Shown: one piece after another, positions 46-60,128 of the stretch | Numbering within the stretch: the first letter of the stretch is position 1 | Layout of the letters: every line of letters starts with the position of its first letter | DNA from: Bacteroidota bacterium | GTDB lineage: Bacteria > Bacteroidota > Bacteroidia > AKYH767-A > 2013-40CM-41-45 | NCBI GenBank assembly: GCA_043747595.1 | Contig: JAYTOX010000058.1 | Coordinates: forward strand, 22,562-86,561 | Reading direction: 5' to 3' | Length of the DNA: 64,000 nucleotides | Position numbers and translations under genes: made by a program | Notes under the pieces: model-generated | The model's database searches: none | What the model was told of the DNA's origin: nothing | What the model saw: only the letters and a program-made list of their open reading frames with translations

Positions 46-936
46 TTAAAAGGAGAATACTCTCGATATATTAAAGCCTAATCGAATTCCCATATTGTTC
101 CATTTAGAATCGGTATGCGTAAAAAATTGATTCTCTACCAGTCCAAAGCTATTGGTAAAGTGAATTTGAAAAACGTGGCCTCCTGTTTCTAATTCATAAC
201 CAATAGACATGCTATCATAATATTTTACTGTCGGAGAATAATCATTGATTCGATACGCATACTCACCTGTTATGGCAGCACGTTTGGTAAATTTGTAACG
301 GAACAGCGCTGATACACCAAACGCATCGTTCTGATCGGTGATGTGCAACACCTGATTGTAATGAACAAACCAAGGTGCTATTTGCAAAGAAAAATTAGGA
401 CTAAATTTTCTGCCTAACATCGCCTCGAAACAATACGATAAACGACTCGATTGATTTTGGTAAATGTCATAACCATTGGCTATAGCATTACCATCTTTCA
501 AATTTGTATAATATGTTCCGGCAAATAACGTAAGACCAAACGGCATTCTATTATCGGTTGTTTGTCGTAGTAAACGATACTTCAAAAATCCATCAACCAT
601 TTTTTCTTGACTGCTTCTTCCAATCCCAAACATAAAGCGACCATCGGGACTGTATTCCAAACTCAGTCGAATATTTGCCGGGCCGTCTAATCCCCATGCA
701 TTGTAAGAGCCGGAATTTATTGGACCAAAACGGTGAGAGATTCTAAAATCAAGTGTTCGCTTACCAACCGTTTCAAGAGTATGTTGATCAACTAATCGTG
801 TTGTTTTAAAAGTTGCTATTACATAATCTTTCGCATGATCGTTAGTGGAATCTAATCCACTCAACATATCCTGACCATTCATAGAAAAGCCGATGAAAAA
901 AAGTACAGCCGATAAAATAATTTTTTTGTTGATCAT
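46..936 (-). CDS. DUF5777-like outer-membrane beta-barrel protein (paralog of 54076..54978)
   Basis: Has an N-terminal signal peptide (MINKKIILSAVLFFIGFSMNGQ), alternating beta-strand pattern and a C-terminal aromatic residue. Shares clear blocks with the 54076..54978 product: RISHxFG, KFRLLxQTxxNxxPFxL, ETGGHVF. Confidence 0.6.
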   Translation of the reverse strand: MINKKIILSAVLFFIGFSMNGQDMLSGLDSTNDHAKDYVIATFKTTRLVDQHTLETVGKRTLDFRISHRFGPINSGSYNAWGLDGPANIRLSLEYSPDGRFMFGIGRSSQEKMVDGFLKYRLLRQTTDNRMPFGLTLFAGTYYTNLKDGNAIANGYDIYQNQSSRLSYCFEAMLGRKFSPNFSLQIAPWFVHYNQVLHITDQNDAFGVSALFRYKFTKRAAITGEYAYRINDYSPTVKYYDSMSIGYELETGGHVFQIHFTNSFGLVENQFFTHTDSKWNNMGIRLGFNISRVFSF

Positions 937-11116: not shown

Positions 11117-13093
11117 ATGAAATTACAAACGCTCACAGCCGATTATTGCAATAGTCTCACAAACTACAACCGCCTTCTTACAAGAGAAGTGAACGTAGGC
11201 GATTTAATTATTGGAGGCAACCATCCTATTCGTGTGCAGTCGATGACTACCACAGATACGATGAATACAATTGCAACAGTAGAGCAAAGCATTAGAATGA
11301 TAGATGCCGGCTGTGAATTAGTTAGAATCACAGCTCCGAGTATTCATGAGGCGAAAAATTTAGAGAACATACGCAAAGAACTTCATAAGCGAGGTTATCA
11401 TGTTCCTTTAATTGCCGATATTCATTTTACTCCAAACGCTGCTGAAGCTGCGGCACGAATTGTAGAAAAGGTGCGAGTGAATCCGGGAAATTATGCCGAC
11501 AAGAAAAAATTTGAAACGCACGATTATTCAGATGCCACTTACGTTGACGAACTCGATCGTATTCGTGATCGTTTTATTCCTTTGGTAAATATTTGCAAAG
11601 AGTATGGTACAGCGATGCGAATCGGAACGAATCATGGTTCGTTGAGCGATAGAATACTGAGCAGATATGGCGACACTCCGCTCGGAATGGTTGAATCGGC
11701 ATTAGAGTTCCTCCGCATTTGCGAAAATGAAAACTACTTCAACATTGTGTTGTCGATGAAGTCGAGTAATCCACAAGTAATGGTTCAGGCATATCGATTG
11801 TTGATTACAAAAATGCAAGAAGAAGGAATGAACTATCCGTTGCATTTGGGAGTAACAGAAGCAGGCGAAGGAGAAGATGGCCGAATTAAATCTGCTGCGG
11901 GAATAGGAACACTTTTAGAAGACGGCATTGGCGATACAATTCGTGTGTCGCTTACCGAAGATCCTGAATTTGAAATACCCGTTGCTAAAGCACTAGTAGA
12001 TCGCTATCAGCGCCGACGAGAGCAATCAACATATATACCTTCTGTAGAAGAAATATCTCCGATAAATACGAAAGCGAATAACGAACTCACCTATTCGCCT
12101 TTCGATTATTCAAGAAGAGCAGCAGTACACATTCAAAATTTCGGCGAACACGAAGTTCCAAGAGTGATAGCAGACATCAGCCAACTTGAAAATATTACCG
12201 AAGCATCGTTATTTGCATGCGGCTATCAGTATGTTTTTGATACAGACAAATGGAATATTTCTGATCAGGCGTGCGATTATATTTTTTGTGGAAATAAAAC
12301 ACCTGAATTTGAAATACCCGGAACTTTGGGTGTAATTGTGAATGCCGACAAATGGATTCATAACAAGACGCGACATTTTCCATTTTTTACGTTTGAAAAT
12401 TATCTGAGTACACAATCAAGAAGTGATAAATTAAATTTTGTAAGTATTGAATTAAAAGATCTTTTCGGAAAAAATGGTCACGCAATAAAAGCTTTCGATG
12501 CTACAACTATTTTAGTAGCCAAAACAGCAAACGAACATGGCATGGCAGAACAACGGAGGCTATTTATTGAATTGAACAGAGCAGGAATTAATCTGCCGAT
12601 TGTTTCGCGAAGAAATTATAGTAGCAGCAATGCAGAAGAAGTTGCGTTACATGCATCAACAGATCTTGGCGCATTATTCTTAGATGGTTTTGGTGATGGA
12701 ATATGGATCAGTGCACCGAATGTAAGTGCGAGAAAACAAATCAATTCAACAGCATTTGGAATACTCCAAGCAACACGAACAAGAATTTCAAAAACAGAAT
12801 ATATTAGTTGTCCAAGTTGCGGACGAACACTTTTCGATTTGCAAGAAACCACAGCAAAAATTCGTTCGCGCACCGATCATTTAAAAGGTATCAAGATTGG
12901 AATTATGGGCTGCATAGTAAATGGTCCGGGAGAAATGGCTGATGCAGATTACGGCTATGTAGGCACAGGCGTAGGTAAAATAACACTGTATAAAGGTCGA
13001 GAAGTTGTTTCCCGAAATATCGATTCCGAAAATGCCGTTGATCAATTAATTGATCTTATTAAATCGCACGGTGATTGGGTGGAAAGGAAGTAA
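11117..13093 (+). CDS. ispG: 4-hydroxy-3-methylbut-2-en-1-yl diphosphate synthase (flavodoxin), long Bacteroidota-type with insertion domain
   Basis: The N-terminus carries NHPIRVQSMTTTDT and the C-terminus carries ISCPSCGRT...IMGCIVNGPGEMADADYGYVG. At 658 aa this fits the long-form GcpE. Confidence 0.9.
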   Translation: MKLQTLTADYCNSLTNYNRLLTREVNVGDLIIGGNHPIRVQSMTTTDTMNTIATVEQSIRMIDAGCELVRITAPSIHEAKNLENIRKELHKRGYHVPLIADIHFTPNAAEAAARIVEKVRVNPGNYADKKKFETHDYSDATYVDELDRIRDRFIPLVNICKEYGTAMRIGTNHGSLSDRILSRYGDTPLGMVESALEFLRICENENYFNIVLSMKSSNPQVMVQAYRLLITKMQEEGMNYPLHLGVTEAGEGEDGRIKSAAGIGTLLEDGIGDTIRVSLTEDPEFEIPVAKALVDRYQRRREQSTYIPSVEEISPINTKANNELTYSPFDYSRRAAVHIQNFGEHEVPRVIADISQLENITEASLFACGYQYVFDTDKWNISDQACDYIFCGNKTPEFEIPGTLGVIVNADKWIHNKTRHFPFFTFENYLSTQSRSDKLNFVSIELKDLFGKNGHAIKAFDATTILVAKTANEHGMAEQRRLFIELNRAGINLPIVSRRNYSSSNAEEVALHASTDLGALFLDGFGDGIWISAPNVSARKQINSTAFGILQATRTRISKTEYISCPSCGRTLFDLQETTAKIRSRTDHLKGIKIGIMGCIVNGPGEMADADYGYVGTGVGKITLYKGREVVSRNIDSENAVDQLIDLIKSHGDWVERK

Positions 13094-13313
13094 GAAGTAA
13101 GAAGTAAGAAGTAAGAAGTAAGAAGTAAGAAGTAAGAAGTAAGAAGTAAGAAGGGGCATTTTTTTCACTCACCAATTACCACTCACTACTCACTTAAAAG
13201 AAGTAAGAAGGGGCATTTTTTTCACTCACCAATTACCACTCACTACTCACTTAAAAGAAGTAAGAAAGTTACGCTTCATTTTTTTCACTCACCAATTACC
13301 ACTCACTACTCAC
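13086..13313 (+). repeat. composite intergenic repeat family A: (GAAGTAA)x~10 array + three tandem 47-bp units GGGCATTTTTTTCACTCACCAATTACCACTCACTACTCAC
   Basis: The array and units are read directly from the sequence. The ispG TAA stop is part of the first heptamer. The element fills the whole convergent ispG/kynA intergenic region. Confidence 0.75.
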
Positions 13314-14452: not shown

Positions 14453-14492
14453 TTGATAAAAAAAACCGGGAACAATTTTCATCGTTCCCGGT
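14453..14492 (-). terminator. rho-independent terminator for 14505..14801 gene
   Basis: On the minus strand CCGGGAACGATGAAAATTGTTCCCGG is followed by T8. Confidence 0.6.
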
Positions 14493-14504
14493 CTACAAGA
14501 GGTG

Positions 14505-14801
14505 TTATTTGCTTTCCTTTTTACTGTCCATTTTACCATCTCCCATTTTCTCTTTGTTCATTTTTTCCATCTTCATACATTCTGCTGTACAAACATGACC
14601 TTTTTCGCCATGAGCATACATGTGTTTACCATTCATGCAAGCAGCAGTACAAACATGCTCTTTCATCATTTTGTGATCAGTCATTTTCGAATCCATCGCT
14701 TTCGTTTCAGTCTTTTTAGTGTCAGTCGTTTTCGTTTGTGCGCTTACACTTACAGCTGCTAATAAGCCAATGATGGAAAATAATGCAATTACTTTTTTCA
14801 T
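14505..14801 (-). CDS. small secreted Met/His-rich protein with duplicated HVCTAxCM motif (putative metal-binding)
   Basis: Has a signal peptide (MKKVIALFSIIGLLAAVSVSAQ). Contains two copies of HVCTA(A/E)CM and many Met, His and Lys residues. Its own terminator lies downstream. Confidence 0.55.
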   Translation of the reverse strand: MKKVIALFSIIGLLAAVSVSAQTKTTDTKKTETKAMDSKMTDHKMMKEHVCTAACMNGKHMYAHGEKGHVCTAECMKMEKMNKEKMGDGKMDSKKESK

Positions 14802-15011
14802 TTTTTGTTTTTTTAAGAGTTAGAATATATAGATGATTAATTATTTTAAAGTGAGAAACACAAACCAATTTTTGCTTGCTATATTCAATTTACGAGTTAA
14901 TCCCCAAATCGGATTTATTCCGATACCTATTTAACTCTATAGTCGGAGTTAAATTGAAAACCTGACAACCCATTCCAACCTTTTAACAAATAATTAAAAT
15001 TTGTTTAAAAA

Positions 15012-15046
15012 AATAGCCCGAATTGAATTCAATCCGGGCTATAAAC
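15012..15046 (-). terminator. rho-independent terminator downstream of DUF3108 gene
   Basis: ATAGCCCGAATTGAATTCAATCCGGGCTAT is a perfect stem flanked by A/T runs. Confidence 0.55.
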
Positions 15047-54075: not shown

Positions 54076-54978
54076 TTATTTCTTTGTCGTAGTTTTTGGA
54101 TCGCCTACCAACTTGAACATTCTGGAAATATTAAAGCTAAATTTAAATCCTCCCTTTTGCCACGAGTCCATAGTATTAACCAGGTAATCGTTTTCCAAAA
54201 TACCCGAGGCATTACTGAACATGATTGTAAATACGTGGCCGCCGGTTTCTATTTCTATTCCGGCTCCAATTACATCTGTATGCTGAAGGACCAATCGATT
54301 TCGATTCAATGTATTGGAATAATCAAAAATAATTGAAGCGCTTGGAGTAAATTTAAATCTGAACCCTCCAGATAAACTGAACGTATTGTTATCATCATCG
54401 GCAGGAACAAAATTTCGGTGAACATATGTTGGTATTACGACAACACTAAAACGAGAGGAAAATTTTCTGGCTAGTATCAGTTGCGAAACATAAACTAAAC
54501 GATAAGCGTCGCTCGTATAATCCATTCTATCTTGGGTAGAATAAGTTAAATTAGCAAAACCGGAAAGCGAAAAAGGAATTGAATTATTTTCAGTTTGATC
54601 GAGTAATCGAAATTTAACAAGTCCTTCTAAATCTTCATTCCTTTTGCAACGGCTCACACCAATCATAATATGGTCCGTTAGTCCGTAATGAAACCCAATT
54701 CGAATATCGCTCGACTGGTCAAAACCATATAAGTTATGAAATCCGCCGCCGCTTTGTGTGCCAACATTTCCGAAGAGATGGCTTATACGCACATCTAAGT
54801 TTTTTTTCTTGACAGTTTCGTTTGTGTGGATATTAATTAATTTATTTCCTTTAAACATACCGATTACCGGTAAATTAGATTTCGGTTTTTCATTTTGCAA
54901 TAATTTAAGGAGATCGTCTTGAGCAAAAAGAAAGGTAGGCAAGAAAAAGAAAAGTAAGTAGAGTAAATATTTATTCAT
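54076..54978 (-). CDS. DUF5777-like outer-membrane beta-barrel protein (paralog of 46..936)
   Basis: Has a signal peptide (LLYLLFFFLPTFLFAQ). Shares the blocks DVRISHLFG, VKFRLLDQTENNSIPFSL and IEIETGGHVFTIMFSN with 46..936. It is the last gene of the operon. Confidence 0.6.
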   Translation of the reverse strand: MNKYLLYLLFFFLPTFLFAQDDLLKLLQNEKPKSNLPVIGMFKGNKLINIHTNETVKKKNLDVRISHLFGNVGTQSGGGFHNLYGFDQSSDIRIGFHYGLTDHIMIGVSRCKRNEDLEGLVKFRLLDQTENNSIPFSLSGFANLTYSTQDRMDYTSDAYRLVYVSQLILARKFSSRFSVVVIPTYVHRNFVPADDDNNTFSLSGGFRFKFTPSASIIFDYSNTLNRNRLVLQHTDVIGAGIEIETGGHVFTIMFSNASGILENDYLVNTMDSWQKGGFKFSFNISRMFKLVGDPKTTTKK

Positions 54979-55538
54979 TTATTAATAACGTTTTTACCGG
55001 TTGCACGATAATCTAAAGTAACATTCACATCTATAATTTCTGCAATATTATGAAATAATAATTTCGGAACAGTAATATTAAAATCTTTTAATGCAACTTT
55101 GAAATTGGAGTTGATAGAGAAAGTGTTTCCATCTTTCTTATAAACCCCGTTTAGCTCAAGTTCTTTTTCAACTCCATGGATAGAAATAATTCCTTTAGCA
55201 GTAACATTATGTTCTCCATCAGAAAATGTTGCAATGGAATCTTGAATTATTCCTTTGAAGGAGGCCATAGGAAACTTATCGCTTTCCATATATTTTTCAT
55301 TGAAATGTTCTTCCATCAATTCTTTAGCGAAATGAAAATTTCGGATAGGAATAACTACGGCAATTTCATTGGTTGAACTATTAATAAAACTTGCAGCCTG
55401 TTTATTTTCTGCTTTAATATCTTCAATGGGAGCATGAGAATAAAAAGTAACAATCCCGCTCACCGCATTATATATGTTTTGCGAAAACGATGGAGTGCAG
55501 TAAATAATTAAAAAAAGAATCAGTGTTATTTTTTTCAT
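54975..55538 (-). CDS. YceI-like (lipocalin-like, polyisoprenoid-binding) periplasmic protein
   Basis: Has a signal peptide and YceI-like blocks (VSGIVTFYSHAP...; ...ITVPKLL...IEIIDVNVTLDYRA). It overlaps the DUF5777 gene by 4 nt. Confidence 0.65.
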   Translation of the reverse strand: MKKITLILFLIIYCTPSFSQNIYNAVSGIVTFYSHAPIEDIKAENKQAASFINSSTNEIAVVIPIRNFHFAKELMEEHFNEKYMESDKFPMASFKGIIQDSIATFSDGEHNVTAKGIISIHGVEKELELNGVYKKDGNTFSINSNFKVALKDFNITVPKLLFHNIAEIIDVNVTLDYRATGKNVINK

Positions 55539-55539
55539 T

Positions 55540-55902
55540 TTATTTTTCGGGGTAACCTTGTTGAATCCACGATTTCAATTGAAAGTAATCGCATTCACTA
55601 ATATGATACTTTTCGGGCATGTGCTGAGGGTCGTTCAAAGGGAGGTCTATTCTGTATTCTATGGTTCCCGAACGAATTCGATTGACAACTGTTTTATAGT
55701 TGGTATAATCATAAGCGCCTTTTCCTCCGGGTGCATGACATTCAGTAAAATTGCAATTCGCATTCAAGATCGGTAAAATATTGGTGTTAAATGTAAATCG
55801 AACGCTATCACAATTATTCGGACGGAAAATAGTTTCAACCATCTTTTCCTTTGTACAAGAAATTATGGTTAAGCAAAAAAGACCGATCCAAATAGATTTC
55901 AT
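55540..55902 (-). CDS. small Cys-rich lipoprotein, PSCyt1-like with C-x4-C-H motif (third paralog)
   Basis: Has a lipoprotein signal (LFCLTIISC) and carries ILPILNANCNFTECHAPGG...MPEKY...LKSWIQQGYPEK. The internal Met is chosen as the start. Confidence 0.5.
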   Translation of the reverse strand: MKSIWIGLFCLTIISCTKEKMVETIFRPNNCDSVRFTFNTNILPILNANCNFTECHAPGGKGAYDYTNYKTVVNRIRSGTIEYRIDLPLNDPQHMPEKYHISECDYFQLKSWIQQGYPEK

Positions 55903-55971
55903 ACTTGAATCAAATATAGGAAAAGGAATCTGTCTTAGCAATTCAATTTACATGAACTGCTTCAATAAAAT

Positions 55972-56646
55972 TTAAAAAATAGCTTGTGTTCTTTCCACAA
56001 CCCAGTAAAGAGCGATTAACGAAATACAGAGAGAAACAGGAATAGTCACAAATTTTCGATACCAATTTTGGTCAGAAAAACGAGTTTGGAAAACGATAAT
56101 GGCAAGAAAAATAACGGCCGTTTGTCCTGCTTCTACGCCAATATTAAACGATATCAGAGCCGACATAAAATCCTTTTCAGGCAAACCGATATCTGCTAAG
56201 ACGCCGGCAAATCCTAGTCCGTGGATAAGTCCGAATAAAAAAACGACGATAAGCCTCCACCACTTCAGTTCTGTTATTAAAATATTTTCTACTCCAATAA
56301 AAACTATTGATAGCGCAATTAAAGGCTCAACTATTGCTCCTTGCGGATGAATCATATTGTTCATCGCCAGTGCCAATGTTATGGAATGAGCAATTGTAAA
56401 ACACGTTACTTGAGCCAAAACAATTTTTAATTTCGGATTAAATAAAAATATGCCTAATACAAATAAAATATGATCGAAACCAAGAGGAAGAATGTGTTGA
56501 AATCCAAGTTTCAGATATTCCCAAAACAAATTGACCTTCGACATACCCTCAAGATCGTAAGCCATAGTGTGAGCTGAGCTTGAAAATGAAATCAAGGTAA
56601 ACAAGCAAAAGCTGATCAAGAATTTATTTTCGGTATTCAACTTCAT
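55972..56646 (-). CDS. HupE/UreJ family metal (Ni/Co-type) transporter
   Basis: Has 6 TM helices. His-rich motifs (HILPLGFDHILFVLG, HGLGFAGVL) are in TM segments, as in HupE/UreJ. The start overlaps the TPR gene stop (ATGA). Confidence 0.65.
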   Translation of the reverse strand: MKLNTENKFLISFCLFTLISFSSSAHTMAYDLEGMSKVNLFWEYLKLGFQHILPLGFDHILFVLGIFLFNPKLKIVLAQVTCFTIAHSITLALAMNNMIHPQGAIVEPLIALSIVFIGVENILITELKWWRLIVVFLFGLIHGLGFAGVLADIGLPEKDFMSALISFNIGVEAGQTAVIFLAIIVFQTRFSDQNWYRKFVTIPVSLCISLIALYWVVERTQAIF

Positions 56647-57974
56647 CAGTTAGCGGCTAAATAATTTTTATTTTCCCATTTCAACAAAACAGGTAAAAAC
56701 GGATTTGTACTTAAAGCCGATTGAATCAGCTTTACACCTTCAACACGGTTTCCTGATTTACTGAGTATAAGTCCGGCTTGATAATGAAGAACTGGATTCT
56801 GTGAATTCGTTCTTAAAGCTCTCACGACATATTTATTTGCTTTTTCAAAATCGCCTCGTTTGTAATATACCCAAGCTAAAGTTTGCTCAACATCAATATT
56901 ATCGGGACGGCGATTATATTCTATCAAAGCATGTTTTAATGCTTTGTTATAATCATAGGCGTTAATGTACGCGATAGCAAGTTCTTTATCGGCATAATGA
57001 CCATGATTTTTAACGCTCTCATCACCACTCACGCCAGCAAGCAATTCAATGGTTTTCTGCGCAGCTATGTATGCTAATTTAGGTTGGTTACTTATTCGAT
57101 ATACTTCCGACAACTCTTCTTCAAAAGAGAAATCGTCGATTATAGCAATGGCTTTTTTCAAATAATTAATTGAAGCAATGTAGTTACGCTTTGCTTTTTC
57201 AATGCGAGCCAAACCTGCATAAGCAAAAGAAAAAATAGGGCGATAATAGATTGCTGTTTCATATTGAAGTTGCGCTGAATCGAGCTGACCAGTTTGCTCA
57301 TACAAATGTCCGAGTTGAATTCGCGTCCATTCTGTAGCTTCCATTCCGGGATAGCCGGACTGAAGCGATAATTTCATTGCACTGATTGCTCCTGGATAAT
57401 CGCCATGAATTTCTCTTAAGTAGGAAATTCTACTATACGATCGATTATCAGGACGAAGTAATGCCATTTTATCGGCCATCACAATTGCATTTTGGTAGTC
57501 GCCATTTTCTACAAATGCATCGGTGAGAATTCCATAAACAGCAGTGCTATAAGGATTGATTCGTTGTGCATCTACAGCTATTGGAATTGCATCAGAAAAA
57601 TGATGTTGCGATAAAAGCACAGTTGCCTTTCCTATTAAGGATTCAAAATTTGTTGAATCTTTTTTAAGTACACTGCTAAAAAGTTCCAATGCCTTCGGAT
57701 CATAATAAGCATGCTCTCCTGATTCTCTCGACTCTTGAATATATGCAAACCCTAACTTCACTTTTGCTTCTTGGTTTTCAGGATTGATGCGAAGCGTTTC
57801 GATAAGCGATTGAATCGCTGCTTTACTATTAATCCATTCATTAGAAGATGCTGATTGACCTTGACGAATTTTAATTCCAAGTTTCAACTGATCAGGAGTT
57901 CTAAATTCTATGATTGCAAAAGAAAAGATGCTCACAAAAGAAAGAAGAAAAATGTATGCGATATTTTTTTTCAT
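56646..57974 (-). CDS. tetratricopeptide repeat protein (periplasmic/membrane-anchored)
   Basis: Has multiple TPR-like helical repeats and an N-terminal TM/signal (MKKNIAYIFLLSFVSIFSFAII). Confidence 0.65.
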   Translation of the reverse strand: MKKNIAYIFLLSFVSIFSFAIIEFRTPDQLKLGIKIRQGQSASSNEWINSKAAIQSLIETLRINPENQEAKVKLGFAYIQESRESGEHAYYDPKALELFSSVLKKDSTNFESLIGKATVLLSQHHFSDAIPIAVDAQRINPYSTAVYGILTDAFVENGDYQNAIVMADKMALLRPDNRSYSRISYLREIHGDYPGAISAMKLSLQSGYPGMEATEWTRIQLGHLYEQTGQLDSAQLQYETAIYYRPIFSFAYAGLARIEKAKRNYIASINYLKKAIAIIDDFSFEEELSEVYRISNQPKLAYIAAQKTIELLAGVSGDESVKNHGHYADKELAIAYINAYDYNKALKHALIEYNRRPDNIDVEQTLAWVYYKRGDFEKANKYVVRALRTNSQNPVLHYQAGLILSKSGNRVEGVKLIQSALSTNPFLPVLLKWENKNYLAAN

Positions 57975-58052
57975 GGTTCGAGTAATTGAAAAGATATATT
58001 TAAAAATAAGGACCGAAGCGATACACACTTCGGTCCTTGCTAAAAACAACCA

Positions 58053-60128
58053 CTATTTAGCAATAGTAATTTTGATAGATTGAACTGTTGATCCATTGTT
58101 TTGAAGCACTGCAAAATAATTGCCCGACGTTTGACTTAACCACTTCACTTCGTAGCTATCGGCATCACGCATTTCATTGTTAACAGGAACAGCAACTATA
58201 CGACCCATAGAATCATAAATCTTCAAAGTTACTTTCGTTTTTGAAGTAACACGGAATTTAATATTTACCGATTCAGTAGATGGATTTGGATACGATTCCA
58301 TTAAAAGTTGAGGCGAACCTACATTCAATCCGCCTGTTGGATTAACAGCAGTGAGTACATAGCCTCCTGTACATAATCCATAACCACTCCATGGCAATTG
58401 AACATAAGGAAATGATGTGCGGAAAGTAGTATCGTTTTGCTCAACACCTGTAGTATAACCCAAAACACCTAGCAATTGAGGAGTAAGCGGACTATTTCCA
58501 ATTGTATAATCGTCGTAGAACAATCCAACTGCTGCAAGAGCGGCACCCGATACAGCTTGAAGTTCAATACGAGTTACATCATCTTCCAAACGACGACCAT
58601 TCGGGAATCCATCCATATTCGGAATATTTTGAATTGCAGTAGAAGTATTGAAACGACTATCTGTTAATCCAAGAACTGCTGCCTGAATAATACCAAGTGA
58701 GCTAAAGTCGGCCGAGTTACGAGCTGTAACCGGAACCGCCATATTAAGACGTAACATATCTCCAAAAGTTGGAAGGAAGTTATTGATGAAAGGTTTTCCG
58801 GCTGATAATGGATTACCTGGAGTTTTCCCTGTGAATAATTGATACGGTGCAAGATTCGGAACGCCTGTGTAGAAGATTGGAAGTAAATCGGCTGAACGTG
58901 GTTTACCCGCGCGCAATAAATATTTTCCGAAGATGGCAGTATCAAGTGCAGTACCTTGCGTAGCAGCATTGCCATACAATACATACAATCCATCGTGTGT
59001 ATTTCCAAAATCTACATTTCCTAAAACAGTTGGAGATGCGCGTTGAATTCTTAGGCTCGACAATGCCGGAACTGCTCCGCCAAACAAACTGTCGTCCATA
59101 TAAAGTCCAAGCTCCGGATTACAGAAATAATCATCGAAGTATGTAGAGTCTTGATAAGGAGTAAGGCTATTCCAAAAATCTTTCATACCAATTGGAATAA
59201 CAGCTTCATTAGTTAAAGGCATTCCTAAGCGAGAAACTTGAACGAAATTTCCTGTGTGTGATTCCGTTCCATTACCATTAAGTGTGCGAATGGCTGGACG
59301 ACTAGCAGAAGCCCATACACCGATAACGAAATCGCCATCGAGAATACTTGAAGCTTGCGCAACTGTCTTACCATCTTTTTGTAAGTCAGAGATATTTATT
59401 TTTAGAGCAATAACATGAACGTTTTTACATTTCAATCCATCTTTTGGAGCATCTACACCGGTACCACCAGCACGAGTTTGACCGAGGTCAAAAATTCCAC
59501 CTAAGTCAACAAAAAACGGATCGTCGGCAGGACCACAATAAACAGATTCTCCACTAGTAGCAGTTGTAATTGCATTGGTAAAGAGTGTTTCGTAGTCAGG
59601 TGAATTTAATCCTACACCTGAAGAAATAGACCGCGGGCCAATATTTGGTGGCGGCACAATTCCATTGGTTACGATTGTTGAAAAAGCTCCACCATTTACA
59701 CTTTTCTCTGCTGTGTAAGTTGTTTTCAAATTCTCTGCACCTAATCTGATATTAAAAAACGTTGATGGATCTTGATTTACTTTAGCGAAAGTGAAACGAT
59801 AAGTAATGTCGTCGCCTGCTGTTGCACCATTATTTTTTACGTGAATTTCATAACGAACATTTTCTCCGAATGAAAAATAATTTGGTCCGCCTTGCGGTAA
59901 TTCTGCAGGAACATAGGCTGCAATAATTGTTACTTTGTTCGAATCTTGCGGATCGCGGAAGGCATACAGATCTGTATTATCTGCAACCGGATCGTTACTA
60001 ATAAGCGGAGCTTCACGATGGCTCGACGCTGTCAACTGATTCTGTTGACTTGCAAAGAAAAGTCCTCCACCAATAAGGAGAAGGGCTATTGAAGCAATAG
60101 AAAGTCGTTTTTTTGTAGACGTTTTCAT
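58053..60128 (-). CDS. DUF4331 domain protein with T9SS C-terminal sorting domain
   Basis: Has a signal peptide followed by SSHREAPLISNDPVADNTDLYAF, the hallmark DUF4331 N-terminus. The C-terminus ESYPNPSTESVNIKF...GNYFAVLQNNGSTVQSIKITIAK is a T9SS CTD. Confidence 0.7.
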   Translation of the reverse strand: MKTSTKKRLSIASIALLLIGGGLFFASQQNQLTASSHREAPLISNDPVADNTDLYAFRDPQDSNKVTIIAAYVPAELPQGGPNYFSFGENVRYEIHVKNNGATAGDDITYRFTFAKVNQDPSTFFNIRLGAENLKTTYTAEKSVNGGAFSTIVTNGIVPPPNIGPRSISSGVGLNSPDYETLFTNAITTATSGESVYCGPADDPFFVDLGGIFDLGQTRAGGTGVDAPKDGLKCKNVHVIALKINISDLQKDGKTVAQASSILDGDFVIGVWASASRPAIRTLNGNGTESHTGNFVQVSRLGMPLTNEAVIPIGMKDFWNSLTPYQDSTYFDDYFCNPELGLYMDDSLFGGAVPALSSLRIQRASPTVLGNVDFGNTHDGLYVLYGNAATQGTALDTAIFGKYLLRAGKPRSADLLPIFYTGVPNLAPYQLFTGKTPGNPLSAGKPFINNFLPTFGDMLRLNMAVPVTARNSADFSSLGIIQAAVLGLTDSRFNTSTAIQNIPNMDGFPNGRRLEDDVTRIELQAVSGAALAAVGLFYDDYTIGNSPLTPQLLGVLGYTTGVEQNDTTFRTSFPYVQLPWSGYGLCTGGYVLTAVNPTGGLNVGSPQLLMESYPNPSTESVNIKFRVTSKTKVTLKIYDSMGRIVAVPVNNEMRDADSYEVKWLSQTSGNYFAVLQNNGSTVQSIKITIAK

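Follow-up and report, generated by a model that had tools for sequence, protein, structure and literature searches.

The 64,000-nucleotide stretch of Bacteroidota contig JAYTOX010000058.1 analyzed here, hereafter referred to as the window, contains at positions 14453-14801 the coding sequence and the terminator of a gene for a small exported protein built around a 27-residue unit of four cysteines and four histidines (Cys4His4). Judging from the way in which this unit is conserved across a family of similar exported proteins, we propose, with a probability of roughly 0.6, that the protein binds a soft or borderline metal in the periplasm, where it would act as a high-affinity buffer or as a hand-off chaperone. 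An earlier note on the window had suggested a stand-alone metal-binding protein of the Met/His type. Metal binding is indeed the function that is best supported, by comparative evidence that goes beyond that note, and the putative ligands are cysteines and histidines.

The gene is real and under purifying selection. Its open reading frame (ORF) lies on the minus strand, begins with an ATG at 14801, ends with a stop codon at 14505-14507, and encodes 98 amino acids. When the gene is compared with five near-identical metagenomic relatives (L001-L004/L012), 16 nucleotide differences are observed, 15 of which are synonymous and only one of which is non-synonymous, and this ratio argues for purifying selection on the reading frame. 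The product begins with the signal peptide that had been recognized in the earlier note, with a KK n-region, a hydrophobic core, and V-S-A at positions -3 to -1, followed by Gln. Cleavage is predicted to occur before Gln22, and a Gln at +1 of the cleavage site matches the Q-rule of Bacteroidetes (PMC5837995). The mature part of 77 residues consists largely of 17 Lys, 11 Met, 9 Thr, 7 Glu, 5 each of Asp, Ala, His and Gly, and 4 Cys, which amounts to 14% Met with no Pro at all. It had been described as dominated by Met, His, Lys, Thr and Asp; Lys, Met and Thr do dominate, but His and Asp, at five residues each, are enriched and not dominant.

Conservation of the Cys4His4 unit

In the window protein, the eight residues of interest are arranged as H49-x-C51-x3-C55-x4-H60-x3-H64-x4-H69-x-C71-x3-C75. 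Two HVCTA(A/E)CM motifs had been noticed here before. Both are present, and since the family consensus spans the two of them, they represent the halves of a single unit. The sequence H-x-C-x3-C occurs three times in a six-frame translation of the window, and two of these occurrences lie inside this ORF. The consensus of 94 units is [ML]-K-[DE]-H-V-C-T-A-A-C-K-x-G-K-H-[MV]-Y-A-H-G-E-K-G-H-V-C-T-x-x-C-K-K, and the general layout is a pseudo-palindromic H(-1)-x-C1-x3-C5-x4-H10-x3-H14-x4-H19-x-C21-x3-C25. All 94 units retain the four Cys and H(-1), while H10, Y12, A13, H14, G15, E16, K17, G18 and H19 are conserved at 91-99%. Likewise, H5, C7, C11, G21, E22, H25, C27 and C31 (numbered by alignment column) are invariant in an alignment of 63 unit sequences (A3). 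The C-x3-C pair had earlier been regarded as something that might add a thiol site to a Met/His protein; the conservation pattern reverses this picture, with the Cys pairs forming the invariant core of the unit and Met being variable (position -4 is Met in 42 of the 94 units, and position 11 in 59).

The substitutions that the unit tolerates are informative as to the role of the conserved residues. Among 334 unit windows, His is present at position 10 in 298 (Cys in 15) and at position 14 in 287 (Cys in 28). Cys is the sole recurrent substitute for H10 and H14, and His-to-Cys swaps are confined to these two positions. As many as 42 of the 334 unit windows contain five Cys, and one contains six. 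Because units with five Cys exist, not all of the Cys residues can be held in intramolecular disulfides. An interchange of His and Cys at fixed positions, together with odd numbers of Cys, is what would be expected of metal ligands and not of a scaffold that is purely stapled by disulfides. Free-standing half-units are also found in the family, and these retain [H/C]14-G-E-K-G-H19-x-C21-x3-C25, which is a full set of four ligands. Several members carry additional tails rich in His and Asp (SHGHDHDHDHDH, HDGHGHGDGHGY and DDHAGHDHSGHDH). We also considered whether CxxxCK might be a variant haem-attachment motif and dropped this idea; the residue that follows the second Cys is Lys in approximately 60% of the units and is never His.

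The window protein and the unit resemble no annotated family. Searches of Pfam-A and NCBIfam with hmmscan at E<=10 gave only spurious sub-threshold matches (Eclosion, Laterosporulin, UPF0239, WGxxGxxG and PG1828), and neither the protein nor the unit profile had a significant match among PDB sequences, with none below E = 0.2. A search of 5.8 billion proteins, on the other hand, returned 71 relatives of 62-150 amino acids each, all of them unnamed or labeled 'hypothetical'. The window protein matches P0001 over its full length at E = 1e-54 and diverse other members at 1e-20 to 1e-35. When the unit profile was compared with 1.84 billion cluster representatives, 252 clusters were recovered (123 of them at E<=1e-10, with clusters counted at 50% identity), and these are short proteins except for P0094. 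The latter, at 1434 amino acids, carries a eukaryote-type array of CCHC zinc knuckles that matches only 10 profile positions (17-26), and it was rejected as a member. Among GTDB contigs, taken at one genome per species, 123 stretches contain a relative. Nearly all of them are from Bacteroidota, including Chitinophagaceae, Saprospiraceae, Flavobacteriales, Bacteroidales and Sphingobacteriales, with a few Chlorobiota and Kapaibacteria besides. No tblastn match was found in 72,556 plasmids.

Members share a simple architecture, in which a signal peptide or lipobox is followed by a low-complexity linker and by one to three copies of the unit. Every member has an export signal, either a signal peptidase I (SPase-I) site of the type ...A, then Q, or a lipobox; the [ASG]Q site is found in 128 of 147 members and the lipobox in approximately nine (10 regular-expression matches, one of which is spurious). 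The composition of the linker varies with lineage, being rich in Lys and Thr, made of (K-M-D)n repeats, or rich in Pro, Ala and Thr. Sequence comparison thus defines a new family by an N-terminal Sec or lipoprotein signal, small size, and at least one unit of the form H-x-C-x3-C-x4-[HC]-x3-[HC]-G-E-K-G-H-x-C-x3-C, and it places the window protein within that family. The family is best filed as previously undescribed and as doing a known kind of job. In a separate observation, the final residue is Met in 85 of the 147 family proteins, 64 of which end in K-M, usually three or four residues past the last Cys. This terminal Met may act as a ligand, signal processing, or have to do with translation. 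It is absent from the window protein, which has an unusually long stretch of 23 residues after its last Cys, compared to two to five residues in most members. Across the family, Met makes up approximately 6% of the mature parts.

By sequence-family match and by defining motif or context, the window protein belongs to none of the known families with which we compared it. The metallothioneins SmtA and BmtA and the copper storage proteins (Csp) are likewise rich in Cys (or Cys and His), are built from repeated short motifs, and likely share a buffering role with the family. Csp1 is exported and uses CxxxC. However, neither SmtA nor Csp (DUF326) is matched at E<=10 in Pfam, SmtA is cytosolic, and Csp is a four-helix bundle of approximately 120 amino acids with 13-18 Cys, whereas the family unit has 27 residues with Cys and His in equal number. 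Locally, the stretch K-H-M-Y-A-H-G-E-K-G-H-x-C is reminiscent of the H-x3-H–TGEKP–x-C junction at which C2H2 zinc fingers are joined, with ligand chemistry of the same Cys2His2 type, and C-G-E-K-G-H of the family resembles the turn of a CCHC knuckle. Unlike zinc fingers, the unit has a C-x3-C-x4-H-x3-H spacing and occurs in an exported bacterial protein with no nucleic-acid context, and the best PDB matches, to fingers of ZBTB20, extend over only 14 residues at E = 0.21-0.36. The resemblance to zinc fingers is at most a case of convergence.

Genes adjacent to family members

To describe the contexts of the family, ORFs were called in 80 non-redundant loci, and 692 neighbors were clustered, with the recurrent ones being named by Pfam. 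The only metal-specific link to emerge from this survey concerns mercury (mer) operons. The gene order ArsR–MerT::HMA–family lipoprotein–MerA is seen in L081, L082 (Sediminibacterium magnilacihabitans DSM 22423) and L083, and the lipoprotein subfamily of these operons carries an extra half-unit. The same order is found in a second subclade that is only 49% identical (P0165; one genome and two metagenome contigs). Placement in a mer operon extends to L081-L083 and L093-L095, all of which belong to the lipoprotein subfamily, and the window gene is not so placed. The MerA proteins of these operons have 553-571 amino acids; those of 571 amino acids have an N-terminal HMA motif, CVNVGC and a C-terminal CC pair, and the 553-residue MerA of the P0165 locus was identified by its Pfam domains only. 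The use of ArsR regulators is known from Bacteroidetes mer operons (PMC3466566), and the characterized Gelidibacter operon reads ArsR–MerT/P–MerA–hypothetical, with no gene separating merT/P from merA (PMC10587081). The family gene appears to be an additional mer-operon component that is undescribed in the literature we searched. Downstream of the mer operon in GCA_026003255.1 (L093 7023-9890; L094 3332-6199), a co-directional run encodes a protein with a type IX secretion system C-terminal domain (T9SS-CTD), two thioredoxin-like proteins, an AhpC/TSA protein and a CMD protein, which suggests an extended mercury and thiol-stress island.

The closest functional parallel in this context is MerP. 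Like MerP and other HMA (PF00403) proteins, members of the family are small, exported and Cys-containing, and the lipoprotein subfamily fills the slot between merT and merA that merP usually occupies. A shared role in periplasmic Hg(II) binding and transfer to MerT is likely. The proteins themselves differ, in that MerP is a 70-residue βαββαβ protein with two Cys, as opposed to 27 residues with four Cys and four His in the family unit, and the window protein has neither a PF00403 match nor the GMxCxxC motif. Since an HMA domain is already fused to MerT in these operons, the family protein is an addition and not a simple replacement of MerP.

The most frequent arrangement in the 80 loci is a module with an extracytoplasmic function (ECF) σ factor gene (17 loci, plus four with a second type), a gene for a soluble protein of approximately 90 amino acids, the family gene, and a gene for a DUF6789 membrane protein (17 loci). 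Four loci extend the module by a cytochrome-P460-like CxxCH protein. In L089 and L059, MerT::HMA is combined with the DUF6789 module, to which L089 adds the ECF σ and anti-σ genes. P0003, the closest two-unit relative of the window protein, is placed in the ECF module itself. Because the order of the genes differs among Bacteroidales, Chitinophagales, Sphingobacteriales and Chlorobiota, a functional link is favored over inherited synteny.

Two of the partners in this module merit comment. The proteins of approximately 90 amino acids have no Pfam match, and C12, H38, C42 and C45 are present in 13 of 13 cluster members (L007 5673-5915; L023, L026, L031, L033, L038, L048, L049, L051, L057, L067, L081 and L089). 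A protein in L099 (1062-1343) likewise has the spacing C-x25-H-x3-C-x2-C. In the redox-sensing anti-sigma factor RsrA, zinc is bound by ligands with this very spacing, namely Cys11, His37, Cys41 and Cys44 (PMC4960319). The proteins are probably an unannotated zinc-binding anti-sigma (ZAS) family of Bacteroidota and Chlorobiota. The DUF6789 proteins found beside the family gene consist of 10-18% Met, with motifs like MMGMPKMSPPAMLANML. We found no published function for DUF6789, the one paper in which it is named being on an unrelated matter, and we consider it a candidate soft-metal carrier.

Other contexts are diverse. A thioredoxin-like protein is encoded between the σ factor and the family gene in L032 and L024, MsrB is encoded in L044, and AhpC in L077; thioredoxins and AhpC follow the mer locus of P0165. 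In eight Sediminibacterium-type loci, a PafA-like phosphodiesterase gene (PF01663) lies 50-170 nucleotides upstream in the same direction, and this block is probably clade synteny. A multihaem cytochrome adjoins the family gene in L055, and Crp/Fnr regulators and a TonB-dependent receptor are also among the contexts. In none of the 80 loci did we find a CopA-type Cu-ATPase, Cus, CopC/D, multicopper oxidase or pco/sil gene within 5 kb. Several features of individual loci were observed in addition. Sediminibacterium-type members (L008 6001-6294, L062, L063, P0035, P0039, P0050, P0054, P0057 and P0068) have long (K-M-D)n or KMDKKMDSKMD repeats between the signal peptide and the unit, and genes for Nramp and a DtxR-type regulator lie approximately 2 kb from such members. 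In L034 and L084, the family gene comes after a co-directional run that includes a CcmF-like cytochrome c assembly protein of 941 amino acids, and the L084 run contains, in addition, a gene for a DUF2520/Rossmann protein along with two small ORFs that could not be assigned.

The window locus

In the window, the gene stands by itself, as the earlier note had held, and it is its own transcription unit. The terminator that had been ascribed to it, a stem followed by a T-run, folds with a ΔG of -21.6 kcal/mol (z = -4.67), a value that was equalled by none of 200 shuffles. The upstream DUF3108 gene is closed by a second terminator at 15042..15013 (-). Because these two terminators bracket the gene, it forms a monocistronic unit. 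On its 3' side, its own terminator is followed by a convergent-free gap, with no downstream cistron. The coordinates of the gene and its parts are listed in Table 1.

Table 1. Location of the features discussed in the text, with the basis for each assignment
Feature	Position	Strand	Basis
Complete coding sequence, 98 codons + stop	14505..14801	-	ORF list, substitution pattern, homolog matches
Sec/SPase-I signal peptide, aa 1-21, MKKVIALFSIIGLLAAVSVSA	14739..14801	-	Sequence features, family-wide site
Low-complexity Lys/Thr/Met-rich linker, aa 22-44, QTKTTDTKKTETKAMDSKMTDHK	14670..14738	-	AlphaFold predicted local distance difference test (pLDDT) below 50
Core Cys4His4 unit, aa 49-75	14577..14657	-	Conservation over 94 units and 334 unit windows
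First half-motif HVCTAACM, aa 49-56	14634..14657	-	Sequence
Second half-motif HVCTAECM, aa 69-76	14574..14597	-	Sequence
Met/Lys-rich C-terminal tail, aa 77-98, KMEKMNKEKMGDGKMDSKKESK	14508..14573	-	Family comparison of tail lengths
Intrinsic terminator: 14-bp stem, 4-nt loop (14463-14494), T-run (14453-14462)	14453..14494	-	Terminator scan and RNA fold
Upstream intergenic region with the gene's own putative promoter, ~210 bp	14802..15012	-	Bounded by the terminator at 15013-15042
DUF6789 examples in other loci	L024 1301-1717, L032 4966-5382, L010 6340-6756, 14 further loci		

The upstream intergenic region gave few clues to regulation. A scan for sigma-70-type consensus found none upstream of the gene, and Bacteroidota promoters lie outside the coverage of that scan; no common ECF-type promoter motif emerged from 18 upstream regions, comprising those of linked sigma genes and that of the window gene. 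The leader or promoter contains a palindrome, ATCGGAATAAATCCGAT, at 14908-14924 and a second one, ATTTAACTC-N8-GAGTTAAAT (100% complementary), at 14929-14954. Both are unchanged in the closest relatives and could be operator sites or leader hairpins. The intergenic region as a whole is approximately 95% identical to that of the relatives, the same as the coding sequence, and since it is as conserved as the coding sequence, this comparison is uninformative with respect to the leader. A leader RNA or riboswitch was considered and rejected, given that Rfam gave chance matches only and that the fold of the leader (z = -2.0) was equalled by eight of 200 shuffles.

The family gene is flanked on one side by genes for DUF3108, ScpB, LeuRS and FtsX, and on the opposite side by those for tryptophan 2,3-dioxygenase and IspG. 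In agreement with the earlier note, no copper-resistance or other metal-resistance gene is present among the window ORFs of at least 150 amino acids, and the 64-kb window holds no second copy of the family. A syntenic ortholog, P0022 (59% identity), occupies the same place beside the dioxygenase gene. Because P0022 keeps this position, the stand-alone arrangement is stable in the lineage. Between ispG and the dioxygenase gene there are tandem repeats, 9.6 copies of GAAGTAA (100% match) at 13087-13153 and 2.9 copies of a 57-nucleotide unit at 13141-13313. Elsewhere in the window, a cluster at 54076-60128 (-) encodes DUF4331 with a T9SS C-terminal domain (58053-60128), a TPR protein (56646-58049), a HupE/UreJ_2 permease (55972-56646), a 133-residue ORF (55540-55941), YceI (54975-55538) and a DUF5777 β-barrel (54076-54978), and a second DUF5777 gene lies at 46-936 (-). 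A YceI–DUF5777 pair is also found directly upstream of the family gene in L005/L006 (4367-5954). The YceI/DUF5777 cluster may be a metal-related uptake cluster.

Proposed function and its alternatives

According to the function proposed here, the protein would be exported across the inner membrane by Sec, and its signal peptide would be removed before Gln22. The 27-residue module would then fold around metal ions through H49, C51, C55, H60, H64, H69, C71 and C75, most economically as two adjacent Cys2His2-type sites or as one small cluster. In the periplasm it would bind Hg(II), Cu(I), Cd(II) or Zn(II) with high affinity, either to buffer the ion or to hand it off, and the flexible Lys/Met-rich arms on both sides may assist in ion capture. 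We infer the binding of metal, its stoichiometry, the identity of the metal and the hand-off role from the comparisons above. As for the candidate metals, Hg alone has direct genomic support, and this in one subfamily only, Cu would be compatible with a Met-rich partner and Met-rich arms, and Zn and Cd would fit the Cys2His2 chemistry and the His/Asp tails. Like MerP, the lipoproteins of mer operons would accept periplasmic Hg(II) upstream of MerT. Copies in ECF modules would be induced effectors in a thiol-reactive stress response, possibly as binders that are paired with a DUF6789 membrane carrier, and the window copy would be a monocistronic orphan that is either constitutive or separately regulated. 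A more far-reaching version of this proposal, which we put forward tentatively and rate at somewhat less than even odds, is that the unit represents a new self-contained periplasmic metal-binding fold of Bacteroidota and their Fibrobacterota-Chlorobiota-Bacteroidota (FCB) relatives. In this version, the unit would be a tandem Cys2His2 mini-finger that serves as a soft-metal shuttle and as a MerP-like Hg(II) acceptor in mer operons, and that forms with DUF6789 the effector pair of an RsrA-like ECF σ/anti-σ regulon sensing thiol-reactive metals.

Several observations weigh against metal binding. The Cys residues of proteins in the oxidizing periplasm tend toward disulfides, and two C-x3-C pairs with a 15-residue spacer also fit a twin-CX3C hairpin. 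Neither AlphaFold2 model is usable, with a pLDDT of 53 for the full protein (30-sequence alignment) and of 59 for a 34-residue unit (63 sequences), although the lack of a confident metal-free fold is weakly consistent with a small metal-dependent module. The mer linkage is limited to one lipoprotein subfamily and may not be transferable to the window protein, which is a soluble, single-unit type with no metal-related neighbor. The contexts are heterogeneous, with the phosphodiesterase in eight loci, the CcmF operon, cytochromes, the TonB receptor and housekeeping genes, and approximately 20 of the 80 loci have no co-directional partner at all. Finally, the thioredoxin-like, MsrB and AhpC partners and the redox-type anti-σ would suit a role in thiol redox chemistry equally well.

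The last of these points leads to the possibility that the protein acts in thiol redox chemistry or scavenges oxidants, with its four Cys cycling between dithiol and disulfide in a twin C-x3-C helical hairpin and serving, along with its many Met residues, as a periplasmic redox buffer of the sacrificial or relay type under oxidative, HOCl or disulfide stress, and with its His residues being structural or tuning pKa values. The C-x3-C-x15-C-x3-C spacing fits the twin-CX3C pattern known from the small Tims, whose oxidizing compartment and two C-x3-C pairs approximately 15 residues apart are shared by the family. The 14% Met of the mature window protein and the thioredoxin, MsrB and AhpC genes in the loci named above, including those downstream of the mer-type locus, are in keeping with this role, as is the redox-sensing CHCC spacing that the linked anti-σ shares with RsrA (PMC4960319). 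We nevertheless consider it unlikely. Disulfide cycling leaves unexplained the His-to-Cys swaps at two fixed positions, the five-Cys units, the four near-invariant His and the independent half-units with one Cys pair but two His, and it gives no role to the His/Asp tails; the Met positions are not conserved, and the placement between merT and merA points elsewhere. The small Tims themselves differ from the family, which has no match to them in Pfam. Its connector contains two conserved His along with three Gly, five or six Cys are present in 43 of the 334 unit windows, and half-units with a single C-x3-C occur. A less probable alternative is the one raised by the earlier note, a Met/His-type Cu(I)/Ag(I) binder or chaperone like CusF, CopC or PcoE/SilE in which Cys would be accessory. 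The arms of the window protein do contain MxxH three times as well as HxxM, MxM, MxxM and MxxxM, some relatives have the long (K-M-D)n repeats, DUF6789 as a frequent partner is rich in Met, and CusF, CopC and PcoE/SilE are also small and periplasmic. These proteins, however, use Met, His or Trp without Cys, in contrast to the conserved Cys and His ligands of the family, and there is no homology to CusF (PF11604), CopC (PF04234) or PcoE-SilE at E<=10. Furthermore, whole lineages of the family have Met-poor linkers of Pro, Ala and Thr, and no cop, cus, pco or sil neighbor occurs in the window, a pattern that holds within 5 kb of the 80 loci. This part of the earlier suggestion is therefore not upheld. 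A CxxxC does sense Cu in the exported peptide CutF, which, like the window protein, is small and has a Sec signal peptide, no Pfam domain and its CxxxC on the periplasmic side (PMC9973294). The proteobacterial CutF has a single CxxxC, ends in a Pro-rich stalling motif and controls the translation of a multicopper oxidase encoded downstream (PMC9973294), whereas the window protein has no Pro, no downstream gene, and a conserved eight-ligand unit.

Two further explanations carry little weight. That the family serves as an accessory for exported metalloenzymes or haem enzymes, as a Zn donor to the PafA-like phosphodiesterase or as a helper in cytochrome c or P460 maturation, would account for the phosphodiesterase genes just upstream in eight loci, the P460-like CxxCH proteins in four, the CcmF operon of L034/L084 and the multihaem cytochrome of L055. 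We give this only a slim chance, given that the phosphodiesterase block is housekeeping synteny of one clade and may reflect shared ancestry, that the cytochrome links are few and diverse, and that the window locus has none of these partners. We rejected a secreted Cys-rich extracellular peptide, such as a bacteriocin, a defensin-like toxin or the precursor of a ribosomally synthesized and post-translationally modified peptide (RiPP), as highly improbable. Such a peptide might be suggested by weak sub-threshold matches to the Pfam models for Laterosporulin and Eclosion-hormone and to the PDB chain of a bacteriocin (E 0.008-0.6), but these stay far short of the curated cut-offs and stem from the spacing of the Cys. 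In addition, an ordinary signal of the Sec or lipoprotein type serves as the leader, and multi-unit and lipoprotein forms are ill-suited to a bacteriocin. No modification enzyme or other processing gene, immunity gene or ABC exporter recurs in the 80 loci.

Metal handling in the periplasm of Bacteroidota is poorly characterized, and the textbook proteins MerP, CusF, CopC and PcoE are from Proteobacteria. If the function proposed here is correct, the family would be an unannotated, phylum-specific metal-binding module of compact eight-ligand design, and approximately 250 sequence clusters that are now called 'hypothetical protein' could receive a name. Should it be a redox protein instead, it would be a new periplasmic thiol-stress effector. 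Given that some carriers, among them Chitinophaga ginsengisoli DSM 18107, Niastella vici DJ57 and Sediminibacterium magnilacihabitans DSM 22423, are culturable, the family is directly testable. If it does bind metal, a repeatable exported unit of 27 residues could serve in designs for biosensing or bioremediation. Metal binding would also explain what the output genes of a widespread ECF σ/zinc-anti-σ module do, offer a first lead on DUF6789, and supply a missing component of Bacteroidota mer operons, which have so far been described as ArsR–MerT/P–MerA only (PMC10587081, PMC3466566).

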